53,457 nucleotides of DNA from a virus (taxonomy: Duplodnaviria > Caudoviricetes). Under the pieces are notes generated by a model. It made no database searches. It had not been told where the DNA came from and saw nothing but the letters and a program-made list of their open reading frames with translations. Shown one piece after another: positions 9,429 to 42,446 of this stretch; position 1 is the first letter of the stretch; the number at the start of each line of letters is the position of its first letter. Where the stretch lies: IMG/VR virus record IMGVR_UViG_3300040770_000286, positions 1-53,457 of that record. One strand, written 5' to 3'. The position numbers and the translations under genes are program-made.

Positions 9429-11510
9429 ATGGCAAAAGATAATTCAACAATATTCCAAAGGTTAGGTAGAGTACTTGGACCAGATGGTGTTAAACAAAAA
9501 CAAAAGCAACCGCAAACAACTCAAAATTATAATATTGGTAAAGGTGAACTACTTAAAACTAATAGTAAAGCTGAGTTTGACCAAGCAAAATTACAAGCAC
9601 AACAAAATAAATATTTAGGTAGTGTTTGGAAAAAAGTTGAGAATGGTTTGTTCCAACAATCAATTAATTATGAAACAACTAGAATTGGTTCATACGCTGA
9701 TTTTGAAGCAATGGAATTCTATCCTACAATTGCAGCCGCTTTAGATGTTATGATGGAAGAATCAACTACGCTTAACGATAAGGGTAGAATGATGAACATT
9801 TATTCTGATAGCAAGCGTGTAAAAGGAATATTAGAAGATTTGTTTTTCAATAGGTTAGACTTACACACATCATTACCTATGTACACTAGAAATACGTGTA
9901 AGTATGGTGATAATTTTGTATACTTAAATATTAGCGATAAACATGGAGTGACAGGCGCAAAACAAATGCCAAATTATGAAATGGAACGTAGAGAGAATGG
10001 TCTATTCGATATGATTTCTGGCCAACAAGGTTTAAACGATGAAGATACAGATGTTTCAGATAAAGTTAAATTCTTTTGGAGAGGTAGAGACGTTGAATTT
10101 AATTCATGGCAGATAGCTCATTTTAGGTTATTGGGTGATGATAGACGTTTACCATATGGTACGAGTGTATTAGAGAAGTCTAGAAGGGTTTGGAAACAGT
10201 TATTATTATCTGAGGATTCTATGCTTGTTTATCGTGTAACTAGAGCACCAGAAAGACGTGTGTATAAAGTATACGTTGGTAATATTGATGATGCTGATGT
10301 TGAATCTTATATTAACACAATTGCTGATAGATTTAAAAGAATGCCAATTGTTGACCCACAAACAGGTCAGATGGATTTAAGATACAATCAATTATCAAAT
10401 GACCAAGATTATTTTATCCCAGTTAGAAGTGAAAACGCACCAAACCCAATTGATACATTGCCTGGTGCTTCTAATCTAGACCAAATTGCCGATATTGAAT
10501 ATCTACAAAGAAATTTATTTACGGCACTTAGAGTACCAAAACCATTTTTAAATTTTGATGAAGCTGGTGGTGGTGGTGATGGTAAGAATCTTGCGTTACA
10601 AGATATTCGTTTTTCAAGAACTGTTAATAGAATACAACAATCTATGATACAGGAGCTTAATAAAATAGCTATTATTCATTTATACCTTCTTGGTTTTGAA
10701 GAGGATTTAGATAATTTTACACTTACATTAAATAACCCATCAACTCAATCGGAAATGCTTAAGATTGAGCATACCCAACAAAAAATTACCTTATTTAAAG
10801 ATGCAACATCTGATTTAGGTAATGGTTTTGCTGCAATGTCAATGACTAGAGCTCATAGAGAAATTATGGGTTGGTCAGACGATGATATCAAAGAGGATTT
10901 ATTACAACAACGTATGGAGAAAGCTGCCTCTGCTGAATTAGCTAACACAGCTAATGTAATTAAACACACTGGGACTTTCGATACAGTTGATAAGATTTAT
11001 GGTGATTACAAAGCCGCACTTGAAGGTGGCGTTGGTGCTGGCGGTGAAGAAGGTGGTGAAGGTGATGCTGGCGGTGGCAGTGGCGGTGGTCTAGGCGGTT
11101 CATTCGGTGGCGGTGGTGTCGGTGGAGAAGATTTAGATTTTGGCGATGAAGAAGAAGGTAATGACGATACTAGTGGTGGAGATGCTGGTGGTGATACAGA
11201 TTTTGGTGATGAACCAGCTGCGAGTGAAGAGTCTGTTGATGAACCAGCTGCTGTTGAGCCAGAGACTGTTGCTGAAATAATTAAAAGAAAAGAAAAATTA
11301 TTGATTGAAAATAAAGCGTATTTACATGAGAAGTTATCTAAACGTAAAATAAAATATCAAGATATATATATTAATAGATTAGTTGAATCTATTGGTGTTA
11401 ACACTAATAAAAATGCTGATACTAGAATACCGATTTACGATAAAAATGTTAGTGTAAATAGAGATATTGATGACATGATTAACAATATCGATAAAATGTT
11501 AGACGAATAA
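9429..11510 (+). CDS. Portal protein (T4 gp20-like)
   Basis: YGTSVLE, EDSMLVYRVTRAPERRVYKVYVGN, DYFIPVR, IDTLPG, ALRVPK and DIRFSR motifs, with a Gly/acidic C-terminal tail. Confidence 0.95.
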   Translation: MAKDNSTIFQRLGRVLGPDGVKQKQKQPQTTQNYNIGKGELLKTNSKAEFDQAKLQAQQNKYLGSVWKKVENGLFQQSINYETTRIGSYADFEAMEFYPTIAAALDVMMEESTTLNDKGRMMNIYSDSKRVKGILEDLFFNRLDLHTSLPMYTRNTCKYGDNFVYLNISDKHGVTGAKQMPNYEMERRENGLFDMISGQQGLNDEDTDVSDKVKFFWRGRDVEFNSWQIAHFRLLGDDRRLPYGTSVLEKSRRVWKQLLLSEDSMLVYRVTRAPERRVYKVYVGNIDDADVESYINTIADRFKRMPIVDPQTGQMDLRYNQLSNDQDYFIPVRSENAPNPIDTLPGASNLDQIADIEYLQRNLFTALRVPKPFLNFDEAGGGGDGKNLALQDIRFSRTVNRIQQSMIQELNKIAIIHLYLLGFEEDLDNFTLTLNNPSTQSEMLKIEHTQQKITLFKDATSDLGNGFAAMSMTRAHREIMGWSDDDIKEDLLQQRMEKAASAELANTANVIKHTGTFDTVDKIYGDYKAALEGGVGAGGEEGGEGDAGGGSGGGLGGSFGGGGVGGEDLDFGDEEEGNDDTSGGDAGGDTDFGDEPAASEESVDEPAAVEPETVAEIIKRKEKLLIENKAYLHEKLSKRKIKYQDIYINRLVESIGVNTNKNADTRIPIYDKNVSVNRDIDDMINNIDKMLDE

Positions 11511-13030: not shown

Positions 13031-13471
13031 ATGAAAACAGGTAAGGAAATAAAACTAAATAATTTTAAAAACTATAATACGGTATTTGGTAGCGTAAACA
13101 GTAAATCACCAAAAGCAATTTATATTAACATCTCATCATGGGCCGAACCAAAAAATGAACATGTTACGATATATACAAGAGTGATTAAAGATTTAAATAA
13201 AAAAATAAAACAAACATTATTTACTTTATTTGATACAGGCGAATACCCCGAATTTGACCTAGATAAAACAATAGTTGATTTAGATATAAGGGAATCTGGT
13301 ATTAGATTTGGAAAGCGAAGTTTCATTAATTGTGAAGTAACTCTATTTTTAGACACAAACATGAGTGTAACGTCAGATAAAATGAAAATGATGTTAGATG
13401 GGTTAACAAATGAGATAATTTTATCTAATTTTGAAACAAATAAAAATTTTAAATTCTTTAAAAAGAAATAA
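13031..13471 (+). CDS. Hypothetical phage protein
   Basis: 146-aa ORF with its own promoter and terminator. Confidence 0.7.
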   Translation: MKTGKEIKLNNFKNYNTVFGSVNSKSPKAIYINISSWAEPKNEHVTIYTRVIKDLNKKIKQTLFTLFDTGEYPEFDLDKTIVDLDIRESGIRFGKRSFINCEVTLFLDTNMSVTSDKMKMMLDGLTNEIILSNFETNKNFKFFKKK

Positions 13472-13556: not shown

Positions 13557-14270
13557 ATGAGTACAAATTTAAAATTATTAAGACGAGGTGAAACAGGTAC
13601 TGGTATTTTAATCGAGCATGATGCTGGGTTTATTAGCCCAGACGAACCAAGAAACCAACCGTTTATCAATGAAATGAAAAAACTAGATACAGGTAGAATG
13701 TCTATAGTTGAACCATTAGTTGTTTACGTTGTGTTACAAAAATATGGTATACTTAACCGTAATGGTAGAATATACCCAGAATCAGTTCTTAAAAAGCAAG
13801 ACCAACTTTACCAACAGGCAATTAGAGAACGTAGAGCTGTAGGGGAACTAGACCATCCAGAGTCATCAGTTATCGCTGGTGATAGAATATCGCATAACAT
13901 TATTGAAACATGGTGGGAGAATCATACCTTGATGGGTAAGATGGAAATATTAATGACACCTGGATATATTAATTACGGAATTGTGTCAACTAAAGGTGAT
14001 GATGTAGCTAACTTACTAAGAAATAGAATTAAAATCGGTGTTTCGTCTAGAGGTGTTGGTTCACTTAAAGAAGGTAGAAACGGTGAGCAAATAGTTCAAG
14101 AAGATTTTGAGATAATTTGTTGGGATGTAGTAACTGCGCCATCAACACCAGATGCTTGGATATTTAAAAACCATGAAGATTCAAAACCTTATGTAGAGAA
14201 CGCTGAAATTAAAAAAACACCAATAACAGAAAATTTAAATAACAATTTAGATAAATTTCTATTAGATTAA
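13557..14270 (+). CDS. Prohead core protease (T4 gp21-like)
   Basis: NRNGRIYP, GELDHP, SH, IGVSSRGVGS and WDVVTAPSTPDA motifs. Confidence 0.95.
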   Translation: MSTNLKLLRRGETGTGILIEHDAGFISPDEPRNQPFINEMKKLDTGRMSIVEPLVVYVVLQKYGILNRNGRIYPESVLKKQDQLYQQAIRERRAVGELDHPESSVIAGDRISHNIIETWWENHTLMGKMEILMTPGYINYGIVSTKGDDVANLLRNRIKIGVSSRGVGSLKEGRNGEQIVQEDFEIICWDVVTAPSTPDAWIFKNHEDSKPYVENAEIKKTPITENLNNNLDKFLLD

Positions 14271-14367: not shown

Positions 14368-15630
14368 ATGGCTGAAAAGAAATCAATACTTGAAAATGCA
14401 TTATTAGATATTAAAAATATCCAAAATGCACTTAACGCAAACACAAAAGAAATACTTCGTAGCGTAGCTAGAGAAGAAATTGATGGTGTAGTAAATGAAT
14501 CAATCTTAAAAGAAGATGATTACGAAGAAGAAGATTTATCAACTGACGAACCAGAAATTGGCGCAGAACCAGAAATGGGTGCTGAACCAGAAATGGAACC
14601 AGAAATGGGATTAGGTGATGAAGCTGGAGAAGATGGATTAAGTGGACTAGAAGACTCTCAAGAAGTAGCACCAGAAATGGGACTAGAAACAGGAATGGAC
14701 TCTATGGAGTTAGGTGGAGACGATATGGACATGACAGCAGCATCTGATGATGACGTTATCGCAATTTATAAAAAATTAAGCGGTGAAGACGAAATCGAAA
14801 TTGTAGGTGATGATATTCATTTAAACATTAACGAGCCTGGGGAGTACGTTGTAAAAGGTGCAGCCGTGGGTGGTGAAGGTGAAGAGGATTACGCAGCTGA
14901 AGAATTACCAATGGGTGATGATGAAATGGGTGATGAATCTGGAATGGATTATGAAATCGAAATGGGTGATGATGAAGAACTAGGTTCTGATGATTCAGAC
15001 ATGGTAGGTGATGAAGCACCAGTTGATGGTGGAGAAGAAGAAGTTTCTGACGTAGAAGCAACTGATGAACCAGCTGAAGACGAAGAAGAAGAAGAAGAAA
15101 TAGACGAAGCTATTAGAACAACGCAAGCACAAGCTAAAAAAGCTGGTAGTGAATATCAACCAAACGTATTGGGTGCTAAACAACTTGCTGAATCTAGAGT
15201 TTTAGTTTCTGAAACAACAAAAAAATATAATTCTTTATTAACTGAGGCTACAAAATTAAAAGCTGAAAATGAAGAGTTTAGAAAAGCACTTAAAGTTTTT
15301 AGAGGTCAATTAGTTGAAACTGTAGTTTTCAATAGCAATTTAACGTATACAACAAGATTGTTTATGGAGCACGCAACAACTAAATCTGAGAAACAAGATA
15401 TTATCAAACGTTTTGATAACGAAGTTTCAAACCTTATTGAATCAAAAAAATTATACAAAACTATCTCAAACCAATTGGATTCAAGAAAACCAATTAGTGA
15501 GTCAGTAGAGAACAAATTTACAAAAGGTGTTACTAGTAGTACGTCAAAACAATTAAACGAAAATACTGCATATGTAGACCCTTCAACAAAAAGAATCATG
15601 GATTTGATTAACAGAGTTGAAAAAAGATAA
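14368..15630 (+). CDS. Prohead scaffold/core protein (gp22-like position)
   Basis: Very acidic middle and coiled-coil C-terminus, located between protease and capsid. Confidence 0.8.
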   Translation: MAEKKSILENALLDIKNIQNALNANTKEILRSVAREEIDGVVNESILKEDDYEEEDLSTDEPEIGAEPEMGAEPEMEPEMGLGDEAGEDGLSGLEDSQEVAPEMGLETGMDSMELGGDDMDMTAASDDDVIAIYKKLSGEDEIEIVGDDIHLNINEPGEYVVKGAAVGGEGEEDYAAEELPMGDDEMGDESGMDYEIEMGDDEELGSDDSDMVGDEAPVDGGEEEVSDVEATDEPAEDEEEEEEIDEAIRTTQAQAKKAGSEYQPNVLGAKQLAESRVLVSETTKKYNSLLTEATKLKAENEEFRKALKVFRGQLVETVVFNSNLTYTTRLFMEHATTKSEKQDIIKRFDNEVSNLIESKKLYKTISNQLDSRKPISESVENKFTKGVTSSTSKQLNENTAYVDPSTKRIMDLINRVEKR

Positions 15631-15667: not shown

Positions 15668-17506
15668 ATGTCACATTTATTAACGTCTGGACAAGTTGGA
15701 AATATTGGAATGAACCATATGAAAGCTATTCGTCTAGAAACTCAATCAAAATGGGATTCATTAGGATTCTTAGAAGGTCTTAAAGGTCACGTTAAAGAAA
15801 ACATCGCTCAGTTGTATGAAAACCAAGCGAGTACTTTGTTAAGCGAAGCTACAACTGCAACTAACTCTGGTTCATTCGAAACTGTAGTTTTCCCTATTGT
15901 ACGTAGAGTTTTCTCTAAATTATTAGCTAATGATATCGTATCTGTACAAGCTATGAACATGCCAATTGGTAAATTGTTCTACTTCGTACCACAAACATCT
16001 AGTCGTAATGACGGTCAAGGTGGATATGGTGACAACTATAACACTGATGGTGGTGCTTACGGTACAACTTTCTCTGCACATACTTCAATGGGTGCTGATG
16101 GATTACCAACTTGTGTACAACCAGCTGATGGATGTCCAATAACTACAATGCAAGCAAAAAACTTGTACGATGCATTTTACAATGATGGATTGTTTGACAA
16201 CTCTAAAGGTACTTTAACTATCCGTACAGGTGCTTACGCTGCTTGGACTTTAGGAAAAGATGGTGAATACGCAGCAGTTACAAGTGGAGCAACTTTTGCT
16301 ACTGCTAATGATGGTTCTGTAAGAAGCGTTGTTCTTGGAGTAACTGGTTTCTCTCCAATGCAAACGAATAAAGCTGTAATGACTGGAGCTGATGGTAACC
16401 AAATGGATACTGAATCATTCTTAGCTTCATTACACGTTATTGCAACAGCTGCAATTAAAGATGTTGATGGAAACACAATCATCGCTGCTGGTAAAGAAGT
16501 TCCATTCCGTTTAGTTACACAACAATACGGTAAAGGTATCGTTACTTATTCAAACTTAACTGATGCAACTGGTACATTGTACATTGCTTTAGATTTATCT
16601 CACCCAGTTGGTGTGTCTGTTGGAGCAGCTGTTGCTGGAACTTCAACTTATGATGGTTATGTTGGTGCAATGTCATCATTCACAATCAATAACTCTGCTA
16701 CATCAGCAGCTACATTCTCAATTGCTTGGGCAGAATATGCTTCATTAGAGATGGAAACTGAAATGGGAGAAGTATCTTTCAAATTAGATGAGGTTGTTGT
16801 TTCTGTTGAAGAAAGAAAATTACGTGCTACTTGGTCTCCAGAGCTTGCTCAAGACGTTAGTGCATTCCATAACATTGATGCTGAAGCTGAATTAACAGCT
16901 ATGTTGTCTGAACAAGTTGCTGCTGAAATCGATAGAGAAATCTTGAGAGATATCCGTAAAGCTGCTGCATGGCAACTAAGATGGGATTATAACGGTTGGA
17001 GAAAAGCTTCTTCTGCTGCAAGCCCATACACGCAAAAAGACTGGAACCAAACGTTAATCACAAGAATTAACCAAACTTCTGCTCAAATTCATAAATCTAC
17101 CTTGAGAGGTGGTGCTAACTTTATCGTTGTTTCTTCTGAATTATCAGCTATTTTTGATGACTTAGAGTACTTCCACGTAAGTGATGCTAACCCAGACCAA
17201 GACCAATACAACATGGGTATCGAAAGAATCGGTACATTAAGTGGACGTTACCAAGTGTACCGTGACCCTTATGCACCAGCTCATTCTTGTATCATTGGAC
17301 ACAAAGGAAAATCATTATTAGACACTGGTTACATCTACGCACCATACGTGCCGTTGCAACTTACTCCAACAATGTACAACCCTTTCAACTTTGCGCCAGT
17401 TAAAGGTATTATGACACGTTACGCTAAAAAAGTGGTAAACAACAGATTCTACGGTCACGTAAGAGTTGATGGTGTTCCAACATTTAATATTAACGAATTA
17501 AGATAA
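15668..17506 (+). CDS. Major capsid protein (T4 gp23-like)
   Basis: KWDSLGFL, FPIVRRVF, VSVQAMNMPIG, RKLRATWSPELAQD, IDAEAEL, EIDREI, YAPYVPL and GIMTRYA motifs. Confidence 0.97.
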   Translation: MSHLLTSGQVGNIGMNHMKAIRLETQSKWDSLGFLEGLKGHVKENIAQLYENQASTLLSEATTATNSGSFETVVFPIVRRVFSKLLANDIVSVQAMNMPIGKLFYFVPQTSSRNDGQGGYGDNYNTDGGAYGTTFSAHTSMGADGLPTCVQPADGCPITTMQAKNLYDAFYNDGLFDNSKGTLTIRTGAYAAWTLGKDGEYAAVTSGATFATANDGSVRSVVLGVTGFSPMQTNKAVMTGADGNQMDTESFLASLHVIATAAIKDVDGNTIIAAGKEVPFRLVTQQYGKGIVTYSNLTDATGTLYIALDLSHPVGVSVGAAVAGTSTYDGYVGAMSSFTINNSATSAATFSIAWAEYASLEMETEMGEVSFKLDEVVVSVEERKLRATWSPELAQDVSAFHNIDAEAELTAMLSEQVAAEIDREILRDIRKAAAWQLRWDYNGWRKASSAASPYTQKDWNQTLITRINQTSAQIHKSTLRGGANFIVVSSELSAIFDDLEYFHVSDANPDQDQYNMGIERIGTLSGRYQVYRDPYAPAHSCIIGHKGKSLLDTGYIYAPYVPLQLTPTMYNPFNFAPVKGIMTRYAKKVVNNRFYGHVRVDGVPTFNINELR

Positions 17507-17557: not shown

Positions 17558-18437
17558 GCGTTATATAGATACTTATAGTTATGAAAGAAGTTATAAAAAA
17601 ATTACTTAGAGAAAGTTTATTATTTGAAAAATTATATCATGGGACTAATCGAAAAGAATTAAATTGGGAAGATAGGAACGAAAGTTCTGATTTTAATATG
17701 TTAGGTTATGGCATCTATTTAACCGATATCAAAGATGAAGCTAAATATTATGCTAAAAATAAAGCAAAAGGTATAAAATATGTCCATAGTTTCAAACCAA
17801 TTAACGCTAACATCGTTAATTGGGATGGGCCTCTACCAAAAACTATTTTAGATTACATAAATAACAATAATGGTTTTTTTACTGAGAAAATCACTGTTGA
17901 TTTTGATGCTTATAGTGTGGGAACAAATAATGGTACATTAGAGTGGGATTTTCTAGATGAAGATTTACCTCAGTGGGCCATAGATGATAATTTAAAACCA
18001 GGTTATTTTATTATGCAATATGATAAAAATTATAAACAAGTTGGGGAGACATTTTATGGTTTAACAAAAGAAGAAGTTTTAAAAATCGCAAATAAATTTA
18101 ATAATGGTCAAGGGATAGTTTTTGATATTGACCCTAACGTTTTCTATGGTATAACTGGAATTGAAGACAATAAATTAAACACAAAAAATATGTTATTATC
18201 AGTCGCTAATTTTTATACGTTTATATATTATAAATTAGGTTCAACTAAAAAAGCTTCTAATTTTTTAGTTGGTTTAAATATTGATGGAGTTACTAAACAA
18301 CAAGACACTAGTGATTTTGGTTATAGTGACCAAAAACCTAATATTACTGTTATCTTTAACCCAAAAAATTTTAAATTAATTAAAACATCTGTTGTTAAAT
18401 AAAGATTATCCTTTTTTGCGTTATATAGATACTTATA
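17541..18437 (+). repeat. 37-bp exact direct repeat (17541-17577 and 18401-18437) flanking one gene
   Basis: AAAGATTATCCTTTTTTGCGTTATATAGATACTTATA occurs at both positions. Confidence 0.95.
17581..18402 (+). CDS. Putative ADP-ribosyltransferase-like protein with a KKLLRE leader
   Basis: LYHGT...LGYGIYLT...AKYYA pattern and a C-terminal GLNIDGV...VIFNP. Confidence 0.55.
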   Translation: MKEVIKKLLRESLLFEKLYHGTNRKELNWEDRNESSDFNMLGYGIYLTDIKDEAKYYAKNKAKGIKYVHSFKPINANIVNWDGPLPKTILDYINNNNGFFTEKITVDFDAYSVGTNNGTLEWDFLDEDLPQWAIDDNLKPGYFIMQYDKNYKQVGETFYGLTKEEVLKIANKFNNGQGIVFDIDPNVFYGITGIEDNKLNTKNMLLSVANFYTFIYYKLGSTKKASNFLVGLNIDGVTKQQDTSDFGYSDQKPNITVIFNPKNFKLIKTSVVK

Positions 18438-20655: not shown

Positions 20656-21129
20656 TTATATTTTTATAAAAATATTAGTATAATAATTCTTATCGTTTTC
20701 GTTTTTACGTATAGAAAGACCCATATGTGTAAACTTACCCTCTACATTAGCCTTATGTGTTACACTCAACAACCATGCATTTAATACACTTTTAGGTGTT
20801 GTATAATTATAAGCCACATTTTCACCAACATTTGTACAACCCAACACTTTTATAATATCGTCAAAACGTGCAACATTACCATTATGACTAACAATATTCA
20901 TCGAAATCATATTATTGTTATGTTCCTCACATTTAAGTGATATATAAGGTATTATGTCTAAATTATTTAGGCCAACACTTACTCGATATTCATTTATTAA
21001 TTGCATTGTTTCTAATTCTATATCGCTATGGATATAGCTATTATTTATTGGAGCTGAAATACTTATTGTCTTTTTGTGATTAAATATTCTAGCAAAAAAA
21101 CATTTGATACTGATTAATAATTTTTTCAT
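20656..21129 (-). CDS. CAP (SCP/PR-1) domain protein
   Basis: LINEYRVSVGL, H...M...VSH, VGENVAYNY, WLLSVTHKANV and YYTNIF motifs. Confidence 0.88.
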   Translation of the reverse strand: MKKLLISIKCFFARIFNHKKTISISAPINNSYIHSDIELETMQLINEYRVSVGLNNLDIIPYISLKCEEHNNNMISMNIVSHNGNVARFDDIIKVLGCTNVGENVAYNYTTPKSVLNAWLLSVTHKANVEGKFTHMGLSIRKNENDKNYYTNIFIKI

Positions 21130-21572
21130 TTTTTTATATTTTTAGTTGAACCATCCCATGTTCCTATGTTATTTATTGATTTGATTTTTGTTGCATCAAA
21201 TATAATAAAATCATCACCTAATTGTATTGCATCATAACCACGCTCTTCAATTTGACCCAGACCTAATTTATCGTATTCACCCCAACCAGCGATTTTACTT
21301 GCAGATAAATATACTGGCATAATTGTACTTGTACCAGCAGCCCCAGACTCACCAGATTCTATTTTATTTCTATCCGATGTAAACCAAAACACGCCTTGTG
21401 CTGAATATTTACCAATAAATTTTGTTATGTTTTTATTACTACCATGGTAACATACCAAAGGTTCGCCAGAAGCATCAACAATCTTACTGTTACCAAACCA
21501 TAGCTTAAATGCATCATTAAATAAAGGGAGTTTTAGGTTCTCCCTTAATAAAGTTTTTATAAATTTTTTCAT
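21126..21572 (-). CDS. ART-PolyVal-like ADP-ribosyltransferase-fold protein with a KTLLRE leader
   Basis: FKLWFGNSKIVDASGEPLVCYHGS...GVFWFT...PVYLS...GYDAI...IKSINNIGTWD. Confidence 0.65.
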   Translation of the reverse strand: MKKFIKTLLRENLKLPLFNDAFKLWFGNSKIVDASGEPLVCYHGSNKNITKFIGKYSAQGVFWFTSDRNKIESGESGAAGTSTIMPVYLSASKIAGWGEYDKLGLGQIEERGYDAIQLGDDFIIFDATKIKSINNIGTWDGSTKNIKK

Positions 21573-39826: not shown

Positions 39827-40849
39827 TTATTTTTTAAACCTATTATAGGAATTATCAGTAATATGTATTATTTCGGGGCCACCGATAAAATCGTCCAAAG
39901 TTTTACTATTTGAATAGCTCATCGCAGAACGCAAGTAATCGGTGAAGTTTTCTGTCCACTGACCAATAGTATATTCAACTCGTCTAACCCTAACAACACC
40001 TTCTGAAGTTTTTAGTATTTGATTACCCCATTTGCGCTGAACTTCTTTGGTACTCATACCCCTAAATTTTTTATAAACAGGTATTTTATGTCTATAAGCG
40101 AACTTAGCCATTCGTTGTGAAACTTTTATCTTTTTCCAAAGATAATTATCACCAGCTGACTCGATTGCCTTATTAAACAAACTTCCAACCATTACATAAT
40201 CAGCACCAAGGGCTAAAGCTTTAATTATATCACTATAATTCTGCATACCACCATCAGCAACAATTTTAGCTGGGTTATCTAACTTACAAGATTCAGTATA
40301 ACACTCGCTAATTAAAGACCCCATAGGATAACCAATACCAGTGTGTAACGTAGTTGAGCAACCGCCACCATTACCAATACCAACCCTAACATAATCAGCA
40401 CCAGCATTAGACAAACTCGTATACGTTTCTGGGTTTGCAACGTTACCCACCATCAAAGTAATAAATGGGTAACGTGCTTTAATTGCTTTAGTCATATCGA
40501 GCATGCTTATCATATGACCATTCGCTACATCAATCAAATAACGGCCATTAGGTGAAAGGTTATTGGTCTCTAATCGGTCAGAAATATCATCTAGAGATAA
40601 AGATATAAATCTATTTGTAGAGTCCTCATATTGTAATGTTTGTCGCATTGAATTATTTCTTGGGACACAAGTGATTATACCTAATAATTCGTAATCAATA
40701 ATATTATCCTCGCTTACAACAGTATCCATTGGCGCAGCCATTAATGGTAAAGACCTTTGTTCAGTATAAGGGTCTATTTGTTTTCTACTAGTAATATCTG
40801 ACACTGCTGCTGGTTTTAACAGTATGTCATTAAAATCAAATTTATTCAT
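39827..40849 (-). CDS. GMP reductase / IMP dehydrogenase family (no CBS domains)
   Basis: FDFNDILL, AAPMDTV, IDVANGH, GNV, VGIGNGGGCST, ADGG, ALALGAD, FRGMST, SEG and LRSAMSY motifs. Confidence 0.9.
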   Translation of the reverse strand: MNKFDFNDILLKPAAVSDITSRKQIDPYTEQRSLPLMAAPMDTVVSEDNIIDYELLGIITCVPRNNSMRQTLQYEDSTNRFISLSLDDISDRLETNNLSPNGRYLIDVANGHMISMLDMTKAIKARYPFITLMVGNVANPETYTSLSNAGADYVRVGIGNGGGCSTTLHTGIGYPMGSLISECYTESCKLDNPAKIVADGGMQNYSDIIKALALGADYVMVGSLFNKAIESAGDNYLWKKIKVSQRMAKFAYRHKIPVYKKFRGMSTKEVQRKWGNQILKTSEGVVRVRRVEYTIGQWTENFTDYLRSAMSYSNSKTLDDFIGGPEIIHITDNSYNRFKK

Positions 40850-41225
40850 TTATTTTTTTTAAATAGTTTTTACTAATTAAATCCATGTACTCAGCTTCAC
40901 AATCTATCATATTATAACACACCATTTCACTAAGTTTATGAATTGATTCAACGTACATGTTAGAAATAACTTTAATTTCCCCCAATAACCCATCAAAATC
41001 TAACGTATCGTCAGACCTATTCTTGAAAATTCTTGATATCATCGGAAAAAGATTAAGATTTAACAAAAGAGCTTTATTTTTTGATACGTAACTCAAGTAT
41101 ATTATAGCTATTTCATATCCAGTCGCTAGTGTTTTAGAACCGTTATCCATTAACCCAATATCAGTCCATTTGTCAATTAAAGTGTTGTCTAATTTAGCCG
41201 CCTTATATGTTTTATTAAATTTCAT
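40842..41225 (-). CDS. Miniature major-capsid-protein-like protein
   Basis: KWTDIGLM, LATGYE, LFPMISRIF and IDCEAEYMDLIS match, in order, MCP segments KWDSLGFL, IAQLYE, VFPIVRRVF and IDAEAELTAMLS. Confidence 0.6.
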   Translation of the reverse strand: MKFNKTYKAAKLDNTLIDKWTDIGLMDNGSKTLATGYEIAIIYLSYVSKNKALLLNLNLFPMISRIFKNRSDDTLDFDGLLGEIKVISNMYVESIHKLSEMVCYNMIDCEAEYMDLISKNYLKKINE

Positions 41226-41227
41226 AA

Positions 41228-41812
41228 TTAAGACACACCAGTTGAACCGAATCCTTTATCACCTCTTGTACCATTACTAGCTATTTCATCAACATTAGTT
41301 AACTTTACCGAATTAGATGAATAAACTGGTGAAAACACACCTTGGGCAATTCTATCACCATGGTTAACAATAAATCGTTTATCACCTAAGTTAATTAAAA
41401 TAATTTTAACCTCACCAGTGTAATCAGCATCAATAGTTCCAGGTGTATTCAAAACAGTTACACCATTTTTAGCGGCTAATCCACTTCTTGGTCTAATTTG
41501 AATCTCAAAATTCTCTGGTATACTGAAAAATAACCCAGTAGGAATAATTTTTATTTGGTTTGGCATAATAGCGACACCATCTAGTAGATTAGCCCTTAAA
41601 TCAAAACCAGATGACCCTACGGTTGCGTAGGTTGGGTCTTCATTAGTTGAGTCATTTTTAAAGGCCAATACTTTTTTATTTATATCAGCATCAACAACAA
41701 TTGTTGCTTGGTTAGCACCAAACTCACGATTAAAATCTTTTTGTGAATATTCTACTGATTCATCACCTATCTTAAAGATAGCCGCTTGCATTTGTTCTAC
41801 AATTGTACTCAT
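41228..41812 (-). CDS. dut: Trimeric dUTPase
   Basis: SGFDL, RPRSGLA, GTIDADYTGE, GDRIAQ and RGDKGFGSTG motifs. Confidence 0.96.
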   Translation of the reverse strand: MSTIVEQMQAAIFKIGDESVEYSQKDFNREFGANQATIVVDADINKKVLAFKNDSTNEDPTYATVGSSGFDLRANLLDGVAIMPNQIKIIPTGLFFSIPENFEIQIRPRSGLAAKNGVTVLNTPGTIDADYTGEVKIILINLGDKRFIVNHGDRIAQGVFSPVYSSNSVKLTNVDEIASNGTRGDKGFGSTGVS

Positions 41813-42375
41813 TATGCTTTTATTTGTTCGTGTTTTATAGCTAATACGCTACCCATTTTAAGTAAATCACCAGTCATACTATTATGTAATTCAGCCATTT
41901 TGTCATCAGTTTTATCAAAGAATAAAATAGCTGATACTTCTGCCTCAGTCAATACAATACCATGTGATAATGCGTAATATACGCTACGCTCACTAACTCG
42001 CATAGAAACGATGTCGTTATTGTACTCATACATTTTTCCTTGATTTTTTCGATGCCATTCTGAGGTGCAAGGTGTGAAAAGGTTTGATTTACCAATTTGG
42101 TGTAACAAACAAACTTTTAACAATGATTCTTGTGATACTCTCTCATCCTCTGGTAATGATTTATTAATTAAAACAGCGTAAGATGATACTCTTAATAAAT
42201 GTTCGATTAAACCACCTTCAAATGCATTATAATATGAAGCCATGTTTGTCGCTGGGGCTGCGATAAAAGATTCCCCTAAAAAAGCCATTAATTCGTCATT
42301 CATAACACCTAATTTAGTTGTTGTGTCGAAGTATTTCTTTGTGTTAGCAATAATTTTTTCTTGTTCTAAAGCCAT
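41812..42375 (-). CDS. HD-domain-like protein (HD changed to HQ)
   Basis: APA...AFEGGLIEHLLRV...LLHQIGK, a YhaM-like pattern. Confidence 0.65.
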   Translation of the reverse strand: MALEQEKIIANTKKYFDTTTKLGVMNDELMAFLGESFIAAPATNMASYYNAFEGGLIEHLLRVSSYAVLINKSLPEDERVSQESLLKVCLLHQIGKSNLFTPCTSEWHRKNQGKMYEYNNDIVSMRVSERSVYYALSHGIVLTEAEVSAILFFDKTDDKMAELHNSMTGDLLKMGSVLAIKHEQIKA

Positions 42376-42446
42376 AGTAATTCCTAATTGTTTTTATGTT
42401 ATTATTTTTACAAACATACGAACAAATAAATAATATTGCAATAAAA

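Follow-up and report, generated by a model that had tools for sequence, protein, structure and literature searches.

The stretch of DNA analysed here (hereafter the window) spans the 53,457 nucleotides of virus record IMGVR_UViG_3300040770_000286, 53 kb of the genome of an uncultured jumbo phage of the T4-like type (32% GC), and it encodes a 127-residue protein (P0001, here the mini-protein) which, to judge from sequence comparison, is very probably a paralogue, much reduced in length, of the gp23-type major capsid protein (MCP) of the same phage, specified by a real and maintained accessory gene. The complete explanation that we favour, tentatively and at somewhat less than even confidence, is that this MCP mini-paralogue would act as a stand-in for the N-terminal module of the MCP and compete for a partner of that module, the likeliest one being the scaffolding core. 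The segments on which the argument is built are the following, the mini-protein being listed first and the MCP second.

40842 to 41225, minus strand: open reading frame (ORF) of the mini-protein, ATG start, 127 residues; very probable accessory mini-paralogue of the MCP.
41004 to 41177, minus strand: mini-protein residues 17-74, matching the MCP N-terminal module (MCP 26-87) through KW..G.L, L..YE and FP.I.RIF; hidden Markov model (HMM) domain with an independent E-value of 1.7e-6.
40929 to 41003, minus strand: mini-protein residues 75-99, a variable linker without MCP match, standing in for about 310 MCP residues.
40866 to 40928, minus strand: mini-protein residues 100-120, which hold an ID.EAE motif and match MCP 396-416, the first part of the spine helix; second HMM domain, independent E-value 0.46, modest support.
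15668 to 17506, plus strand: MCP of the gp23 family, 612 residues, probable parent of the mini-protein; Pfam Gp23 at 2.2e-73 (248 bits), T4 gp23 chains at about 2e-29.
15743 to 15928, plus strand: MCP residues 26-87, which comprise the propeptide helices and the beginning of the N-arm and are reproduced in the mini-protein, as delimited by profile comparison and the T4 gp23 alignment.
16853 to 16915, plus strand: MCP residues 396-416, where the spine helix begins; they match the C-terminal block of the mini-protein and align with the helix region of T4 gp23.

Relationship between the mini-protein and the major capsid protein

The resemblance was first pointed out in a preliminary description of the window as four short motifs that follow one another in the same order in both proteins. 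They are indeed found, in the order given, at MCP residues 27-35, 46-51, 74-83 and 401-414, and the fourth, described as lying more than 300 residues downstream in the MCP, comes 318 residues after the third. Pairwise comparison of the two sequences is not significant: BLASTP returned E-values of 0.25 and 0.46, and the Smith-Waterman score of 37 was equalled in 86 of 500 shuffles. An alignment of the two proteins as a chain, with a flat fee for long gaps, gave a score reached by none or one of 300 shuffles (z 2.9-3.8), which, for two proteins singled out because they already looked alike, is no more than suggestive.

The evidence that carries the relationship comes from the comparison of families. 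An exhaustive phmmer search of 1.84 billion representatives yielded five small relatives of the mini-protein, of 128, 131, 109 and 133 residues plus a 51-residue fragment. The invariant columns of this family (L16, K19, W20, G24, L33, F60, I66, F67, D108, E110 and Y121) are those of the motifs noted initially, and the invariant columns that could be aligned are identical to the MCP in seven of ten cases, compared with 17 of 64 for the remaining columns (Fisher p 0.011). When five mini-proteins were compared with 25 MCPs by hhalign, the E-value was 1.1e-5. The N-terminal half alone gave 3.3e-6 against this 25-member profile, at MCP 26-84 (the best of 60 column shuffles being 0.012), and the C-terminal part alone 0.0094, or 0.0036 for residues 96-127, at MCP 396-419 (best of 60 column shuffles, 0.058). 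With six mini-proteins and 16 more diverse MCPs, a broader profile that takes in three isolate phages, the N-terminal half reached an E-value of 1.1e-7 with a probability of 94% (best of 40 shuffles, 0.13) and the C-terminal part 0.0032 at MCP 396-416 (best of 40 shuffles, 0.096). None of 100 column shuffles reached the E-value of the C-terminal part.

Two further searches did not presuppose that the MCP would be the answer. When the HMM of the family was run over all 95 window ORFs of at least 70 residues, the MCP was the sole match (E 2.1e-8, the next ORF having 0.31), and it was matched in two collinear domains, at residues 27-86 and 371-417. Likewise, a six-frame search with the family profile through five related genomes of 274-369 kb found a single match in each of them, the N-terminus of the MCP (E 1.6e-6 to 7.9e-6). 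The profile-profile search, which the preliminary description had named beforehand, together with a comparison of folds, as able to refute the relationship, finds significant similarity to the gp23-type MCPs of this clade. At the level of sequence profiles, the N-terminal homology of the mini-protein to the MCP is secure, and the spine-helix block stands in the right place and in the right order with modest support. Of the suggestion that the small protein joins the N-terminal helices of the MCP to its spine-helix region and drops the rest, the N-terminal part holds firmly and the spine-helix part more weakly.

Several other searches with the mini-protein or its homologues gave nothing. Scans against Pfam, PHROGs, PADLOC and NCBIfam gave nothing usable, a tblastn search of 50,697 phage records gave no match, a word-index protein search returned only the query, and scans of viral contigs for the homologues P0004, P0005 and P0006 found none. 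The ESM Atlas model of the mini-protein is poor (mean predicted local distance difference test score 0.42), and its best feature score was 0.86, under the 0.9 level. As a separate observation, five stretches of a 2629-residue protein (P0007), apart from one another, resemble mini-protein residues 50-74 (E 6e-4), which is probably a matter of repeats or low complexity.

The part of the capsid protein that is retained

The aligned parts of the MCP are restricted to residues 19-96 and 396-416, and residues 97-395 and 417-612 have no counterpart in the mini-protein, from which the complete HK97-fold body (P-domain sheet, A domain and E-loop/I-linkers) is absent. Because it is devoid of the I-domain linkers, the I domain, the P-domain sheet and the A domain, the mini-protein cannot be a subunit of the shell.

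The nature of the retained part can be approached through T4. Residues 72-105 of the window MCP align with residues 28-61 of mature T4 gp23 (the T4 numbering from P93 to R101 was confirmed in the T4 record), so F75-F82 of the MCP and F60-F67 of the mini-protein correspond to T4 gp23 M96-I103. In T4, gp23 loses its 65 N-terminal residues by cleavage, and residues 66-105 are disordered in the unexpanded head, where they point inward and probably touch the gp22 core; the head-length mutants A66D, A94V and G97S fall in this N-terminal region, and M98 contacts a portal whisker (PMC9546572). By analogy with the L/I-X-E rule of T4 (PMC9026906), LSE/A at residue 60 of the window MCP is the likely maturation site. 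Based on this mapping onto T4 gp23, the mini-protein would keep the inner-facing, partner-binding end of the MCP and discard the body that forms the shell.

The same region has been linked to host factors. Gol, which spans 29 residues within the first quarter of gp23 and is its most conserved part, binds EF-Tu through domains II and III of the latter, and it has been proposed to act in the translation or folding of gp23 (PMC3014915). The segment FPIVRRVF of the window MCP had been equated with Gol in the preliminary description, and this agrees with its alignment to T4 gp23 96-103, within the first quarter of the protein where Gol is placed (PMC3014915).

These properties raise the possibility, which we consider improbable, that the MCP-like N-terminus directs the mini-protein to GroEL or EF-Tu, so that the host factor would be pre-loaded, titrated or reprogrammed before the flood of MCP. 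The N-terminus of T4 gp23 is a strong GroEL-targeting signal when fused to other proteins (PMC3012670), Gol is an EF-Tu ligand as just mentioned (PMC3014915), and the mini-protein keeps the KW..G.L N-terminal helix that is invariant in the MCPs of this clade; however, the family profile cannot be significantly aligned with the T4 N-terminus.

Gene position, reading frame and expression

The mini-protein gene lies between those for a dUTPase and a GMP reductase, at the coordinates initially reported, on the minus strand and with an ATG start. It is located outside the head module and on the strand opposite to it. Its neighbours are these.

41228 to 41812, minus strand: dUTPase, upstream neighbour (PF00692, 1.7e-26).
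39827 to 40849, minus strand: IMPDH/GMP-reductase-family gene, downstream neighbour (PF00478, 1.2e-43).
41812 to 42375, minus strand: HD-domain-like gene, the first after a 71-nucleotide intergenic gap (PF01966, E 0.0021, 18.7 bits, under the cut-off of 22).
42411 to 42418, minus strand: claimed promoter element TATGTTTG, present in the 71-nucleotide gap upstream of the HD-like gene.

Only 2 nucleotides separate the dUTPase stop from the mini-protein start, and the mini-protein stop overlaps the ATG of the downstream IMPDH/GMP-reductase-family gene by 8 nucleotides. A 233-kb relative (G001) shows the same order, with the dUTPase, a mini-protein of 129 residues, the reductase and a glycosyltransferase-like gene following one another with overlaps as tight. 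At the base composition of the window, the chance of an open frame of 127 codons is about 4e-5, and none of the five full-length members of the family has a broken frame, in spite of their low mutual identity (27-40%) and AT-rich DNA. That the gene is maintained follows from the open frame, from its integrity in divergent members and from the synteny and translational coupling in G001.

These data bear on the notion that the gene could be an evolutionary remnant, a functionless leftover of an MCP gene that was duplicated or recombined, now in decay and caught at a variable junction. The family is tiny (five clusters plus a 51-residue fragment), and the junction between dUTPase and GMP reductase is variable, with other fillers in the loci L013, L014 and L082 (in L082, a Cys-rich ORF of 228 residues between dUTPase and reductase). 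Decay is, however, hard to reconcile with the intact and improbable reading frame, with conservation concentrated in specific columns, with a gene tightly coupled to its neighbours in two phages and with a sister family of MCP fragments under purifying selection (see below), and we regard this explanation as very improbable.

The proposal that the gene is expressed early from a host-type TAnnTTTG promoter found no support. Among the sequencing runs listed as containing this DNA there is only the probable source DNA run, and no RNA run. The pattern occurs 88 times in the window when 94.3 +/- 10 occurrences are expected, which is chance frequency, and the 71-nucleotide gap has no TTTG at a -33-like distance, judged by the consensus spacing of that element. 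TATAAATA, the T4 late-promoter consensus, is found 23 times in the window against 15.5 expected, a number reached by 7 of 100 shuffles.

An old, fast-evolving and patchily kept gene

A set of 80 loci anchored on the reductase was assembled, the closest ten being L010-L019. Two of these ten carry unrelated short fillers at the junction. The family HMM, run over the 80 loci, found no member besides that of G001 and a doubtful ORF of 138 residues in L030 (E 9.4e-5), which was left out of the family for being devoid of MCP-like motifs. Matches in L001-L004 were judged spurious: that in L004, the only one examined, falls in a 51-residue frame antisense to real genes, and those in L001-L003 involve the same 26 residues as in L004. 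As a side observation, in L068, L070 and L082 the reductase match is split, residues 163-339 lying about 1.2 kb from the first part; both the dUTPase/reductase junction and the reductase gene look like places where elements insert frequently, and these may be homing endonucleases.

The members of the mini-protein family are only 27-40% identical, compared with 58-92% for MCPs of the same clade. Judged by this difference and by the distribution of the gene across loci and genomes, the gene is old, fast-evolving and patchily kept.

Such a behaviour would also suit a defence decoy, in which the mini-protein mimics the most conserved, sensor-exposed part of the unassembled MCP and soaks up or blocks a capsid sensor (of the Lit/Gol-EF-Tu type, of the CapRel type or another) without activating it. 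In addition to the patchy, accessory distribution, the fast divergence and the location outside the head module, this idea is favoured by the fact that MCPs trigger several defence systems (PMC13728456, PMC9712102), that the mini-protein keeps the start of the segment equivalent to Gol, the EF-Tu binder and most conserved gp23 region (PMC3014915), and that DSAD1, acting against DSR2, provides the precedent of a competitor for a structural-protein trigger (PMC11087589). Nevertheless, sensors of this kind are normally switched on when their trigger binds, and a mimic might therefore set them off; only about eight residues of the Gol-equivalent segment are retained; no defence or anti-defence family is recognized (PADLOC gave no consistent match among five members); the motif put forward for early expression is at chance frequency; and neither the literature searched nor the available part of a November 2026 review of phage countermeasures mentions a decoy derived from an MCP. 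We consider the decoy unlikely, and a modulator of assembly, which had been put forward as its alternative, is at least as likely.

Fast evolution and an accessory status would also suit a weapon against related phages, a dominant-negative piece of the MCP which, as capsid-derived restriction factors do, would poison the assembly of capsids by relatives infecting the same cell, and in T4 the retained segments mediate contacts with the core and between capsomers (PMC9546572). However, the retained motifs are identical to those of the phage's own MCP, so that self-poisoning would be expected, and there is no evidence of a mechanism of self-immunity; this reading seems to us very unlikely.

Other small ORFs that carry pieces of the capsid protein

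Small ORFs with other MCP pieces show that the mini-protein is not a one-off. The G001 relative has two of them. The first, of 159 residues (L007:1396-1875, minus strand), contains the N-arm segment, scores 46.6 bits with Pfam Gp23, above the gathering score, and was found only in G001. The second, of 189 residues (L008:1315-1884, minus strand), contains a strand and the spine helix (Pfam Gp23, 34.5 bits, also above the gathering score) and has a second, collinear match to the C-terminal strand of the MCP. This latter family is present in seven viral contigs, with a syntenic orthologue of 220 residues in G002 and G003 (L110/L111:1267-1929, plus strand), which likewise passes Pfam Gp23 over the strand, spine helix and C-terminal strand. 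The ratio of nonsynonymous to synonymous substitutions was calculated for five of the seven loci, L098 and L100 having been dropped as likely duplicates of L097 and L099, and it ranged from 0.16 to 0.30 in all ten pairs; by this substitution pattern, the 189-residue sister fragment family is under purifying selection.

A different arrangement is seen in the metagenome contig L095 (20.4 kb), where a homologue of the mini-protein, P0004, belongs to a run of small co-directional ORFs near scaffold-like and portal genes. Two ORFs of this run carry MCP 383-421 and MCP 433-502, respectively, each with an E-value of about 1e-10. In addition, the peptide TR.V[L/I]FEK appears in L095 (4500-12100 and 17637) at 11 ORF positions, with variants at two more, mostly near the N-terminus of small ORFs and on whichever strand encodes the local run of genes, and several of the ORFs bearing this leader continue with different MCP segments. 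Since third codon positions vary synonymously, it is the peptide, and not the DNA, that is conserved. P0004 itself has V-L-F-E at residues 10-13, and the leader ends in V-L-F-E-K, an ending common to at least ten neighbouring ORFs. The L-F-E of the leader fits the L/I-X-E rule of the T4 prohead protease (PMC9026906), and the peptide may be a leader for capsid targeting or cleavage. That it might be the MCP's own N-terminus was considered and found to be unsupported by the MCP N-termini of relatives. The mini-protein of the window has no L/I-X-E within its first 20 residues.

The head module of the window

Apart from the MCP, the following head genes can be assigned in the window.

14368 to 15630, plus strand: acidic protein of 420 residues at the gp22 (scaffold) position, between protease and MCP; candidate partner of the MCP N-terminal module.
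13557 to 14270, plus strand: prohead maturation protease (phrog_207, 2.5e-39).
9429 to 11510, plus strand: portal protein (phrog_213, 1.6e-55).

The protein at the gp22 position has no Pfam or PHROG match, and its homologues adjoin the MCP in G001 and in G003-G006. Its middle part (residues about 50-250) is long, of low complexity and extremely acidic, and its ends look helical. A single-sequence Smith-Waterman comparison of the MCP N-terminus with the scaffold and the small ORFs of the head module in the window gave nothing significant.

The nearest isolates to the window MCP are distant (Flavobacterium phage immuto, Microcystis phage Mel-JY01 and others, all with an identity below 60% and with no more than 45% of the MCP covered), and close relatives of the MCP, 76-92% identical, are found on contigs of up to 377 kb, the complete relatives measuring 299-369 kb. 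The window MCP has 612 residues in comparison with 521 in T4, the surplus falling between residues of about 105 and 360, in the I-domain region; as MCP length ranges from 528 to 638 residues in relatives, the I-domain region is the variable part.

Other observations concern three further ORFs of the window. One of 146 residues (13031-13471, plus strand), in the head module between portal and protease, matches weakly a Sir2-like PHROG (phrog_2162, 4.9e-5), which is an odd place for such a domain. The N-termini of the ORFs at 17581-18402 (plus strand; MKEVIKKLLRESLLFEK) and 21126-21572 (minus strand; MKKFIKTLLRENL) are alike, and that of the former holds LLFEK, the sole match in the window to the leader pattern of L095.

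Proposed role and the points that weigh against it

The observations could be integrated by assuming that the mini-protein is a soluble mimic of the N-terminal module of the MCP (residues about 19-96), which would compete with newly made MCP for whatever binds this module. Among the possible partners, the scaffolding core would be the likeliest, an assignment made by analogy that we hold with reserve, as one more apt to be wrong than right; the mini-protein would then either ride into the interior of the prohead or tune the interaction between MCP and core. The core was ranked first because of the T4 precedent, of the head-gene surroundings and protease-like leader of the L095 homologue, and of the many accessory internal proteins present in the heads of T4-type and jumbo phages.

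Several findings pull in the opposite direction. On the side of homology, the support for the spine-helix block amounts to E-values of only about 0.003-0.03, the profile of the mini-protein family falls short of T4 gp23 (nothing below an E-value of 1.3 in a PDB search, 0.11 by hhalign), and none of the five family members reaches the Pfam Gp23 gathering score on its own. Moreover, the invariant residues are mostly hydrophobic (L, W, L, F, I, F and Y) and may reflect merely a shared fold core and not a shared binding surface. On the side of the gene, both in the window and in G001 it belongs to a run of nucleotide-metabolism and glycosyltransferase genes on the strand opposite to the head module; the dUTPase directly abuts the GMP-reductase-family gene (gap of at most 16 nucleotides) in eight of the ten closest loci; and the gene is absent from all five related large genomes, four of them complete. 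This patchy presence argues against a core role in assembly.

Implications

The known paralogues of MCPs are full-length shell proteins such as gp24. Neither the literature searched, a limited library, nor the part available of the November 2026 review describes a capsid decoy or a small protein, derived from the MCP of the same phage, in which only the inner-facing N-terminal module is kept. If the mini-protein bound the scaffolding core, it would be a natural probe of the interface between MCP propeptide and core, which is poorly resolved and sets head size in T4-type phages. If it bound a host sensor, GroEL or EF-Tu, it would be the first case of a phage countering capsid sensing with a mimic made from its own protein. 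A bolder and rather unlikely extension would be that this clade of jumbo T4-like phages evolved a whole repertoire of self-derived capsid mimics, each showing a different piece of the MCP and, in one lineage, tagged with the TR.VLFEK leader, which would be packaged in the head or produced before the MCP and serve to blind capsid-sensing immunity or to control the assembly of a very large capsid, the window protein being the member that shows the N-terminal module.

Comparison with known systems

DSAD1, the phage inhibitor of DSR2, resembles the mini-protein in being a small phage protein, one that acts against a sensor by which a structural protein of the virion is recognized, and it would be a precedent if the decoy reading were right (PMC11087589). 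In relation to the Gol peptide, the FPMISRIF of the mini-protein keeps the first eight residues or so of the equivalent segment, and the strand that follows (...VSVQAM...) is missing. DSAD1 is not known to be derived from the structural protein with which it competes.

Within the T4 head, a parallel is offered by gp67 (PIP, 80 residues), a component of the prohead core involved in head-size determination, which, like the mini-protein, is small and resembles the propeptide of the MCP. Residues 2-48 of gp67 align with gp23 propeptide residues 20-67 (Smith-Waterman score 47, reached by 3 of 300 shuffles, a marginal result), gp22 191-246 aligns with gp23 12-66 (12 of 300 shuffles), and gp68 shows nothing; this sequence comparison suggests that core proteins share segments with the inner-facing N-terminus of the shell protein. 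A similarity between gp67 and gp23 is said to have been reported in older work, and it was not found in the literature passages searched. The HMM of the mini-protein family detects no similarity to T4 gp67 (E 0.39 among five proteins). The two also differ in location, since the gp67 gene lies between portal and protease, while that of the mini-protein is about 23 kb off and on the other strand (40.8-41.2 kb, minus, as opposed to 9.4-14.3 kb, plus).

The internal proteins of T4 are small, accessory and fast-evolving, and they are directed to the core by a short N-terminal peptide of 10-19 residues that gp21 removes after L/I-X-E (PMC9026906, PMC3012670). The mini-protein shares the first three of these traits with IPI-III, and in its family the V-L-F-E-K leader of P0004 fits the cleavage motif; there is no sequence similarity between these proteins and the mini-protein, and the window protein does not have the L/I-X-E.

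Finally, with the gp23 MCP (PF07068) the mini-protein shares the N-terminal module and, less certainly, the start of the spine helix, and with gp24, a full-length paralogue of the MCP, it has in common that it too would be an MCP paralogue encoded in the same genome. The mini-protein differs in having 127 residues compared with the 612 of the MCP, in the absence of the HK97-fold body and of a Pfam Gp23 match, and in being accessory, not core, and encoded outside the head module.

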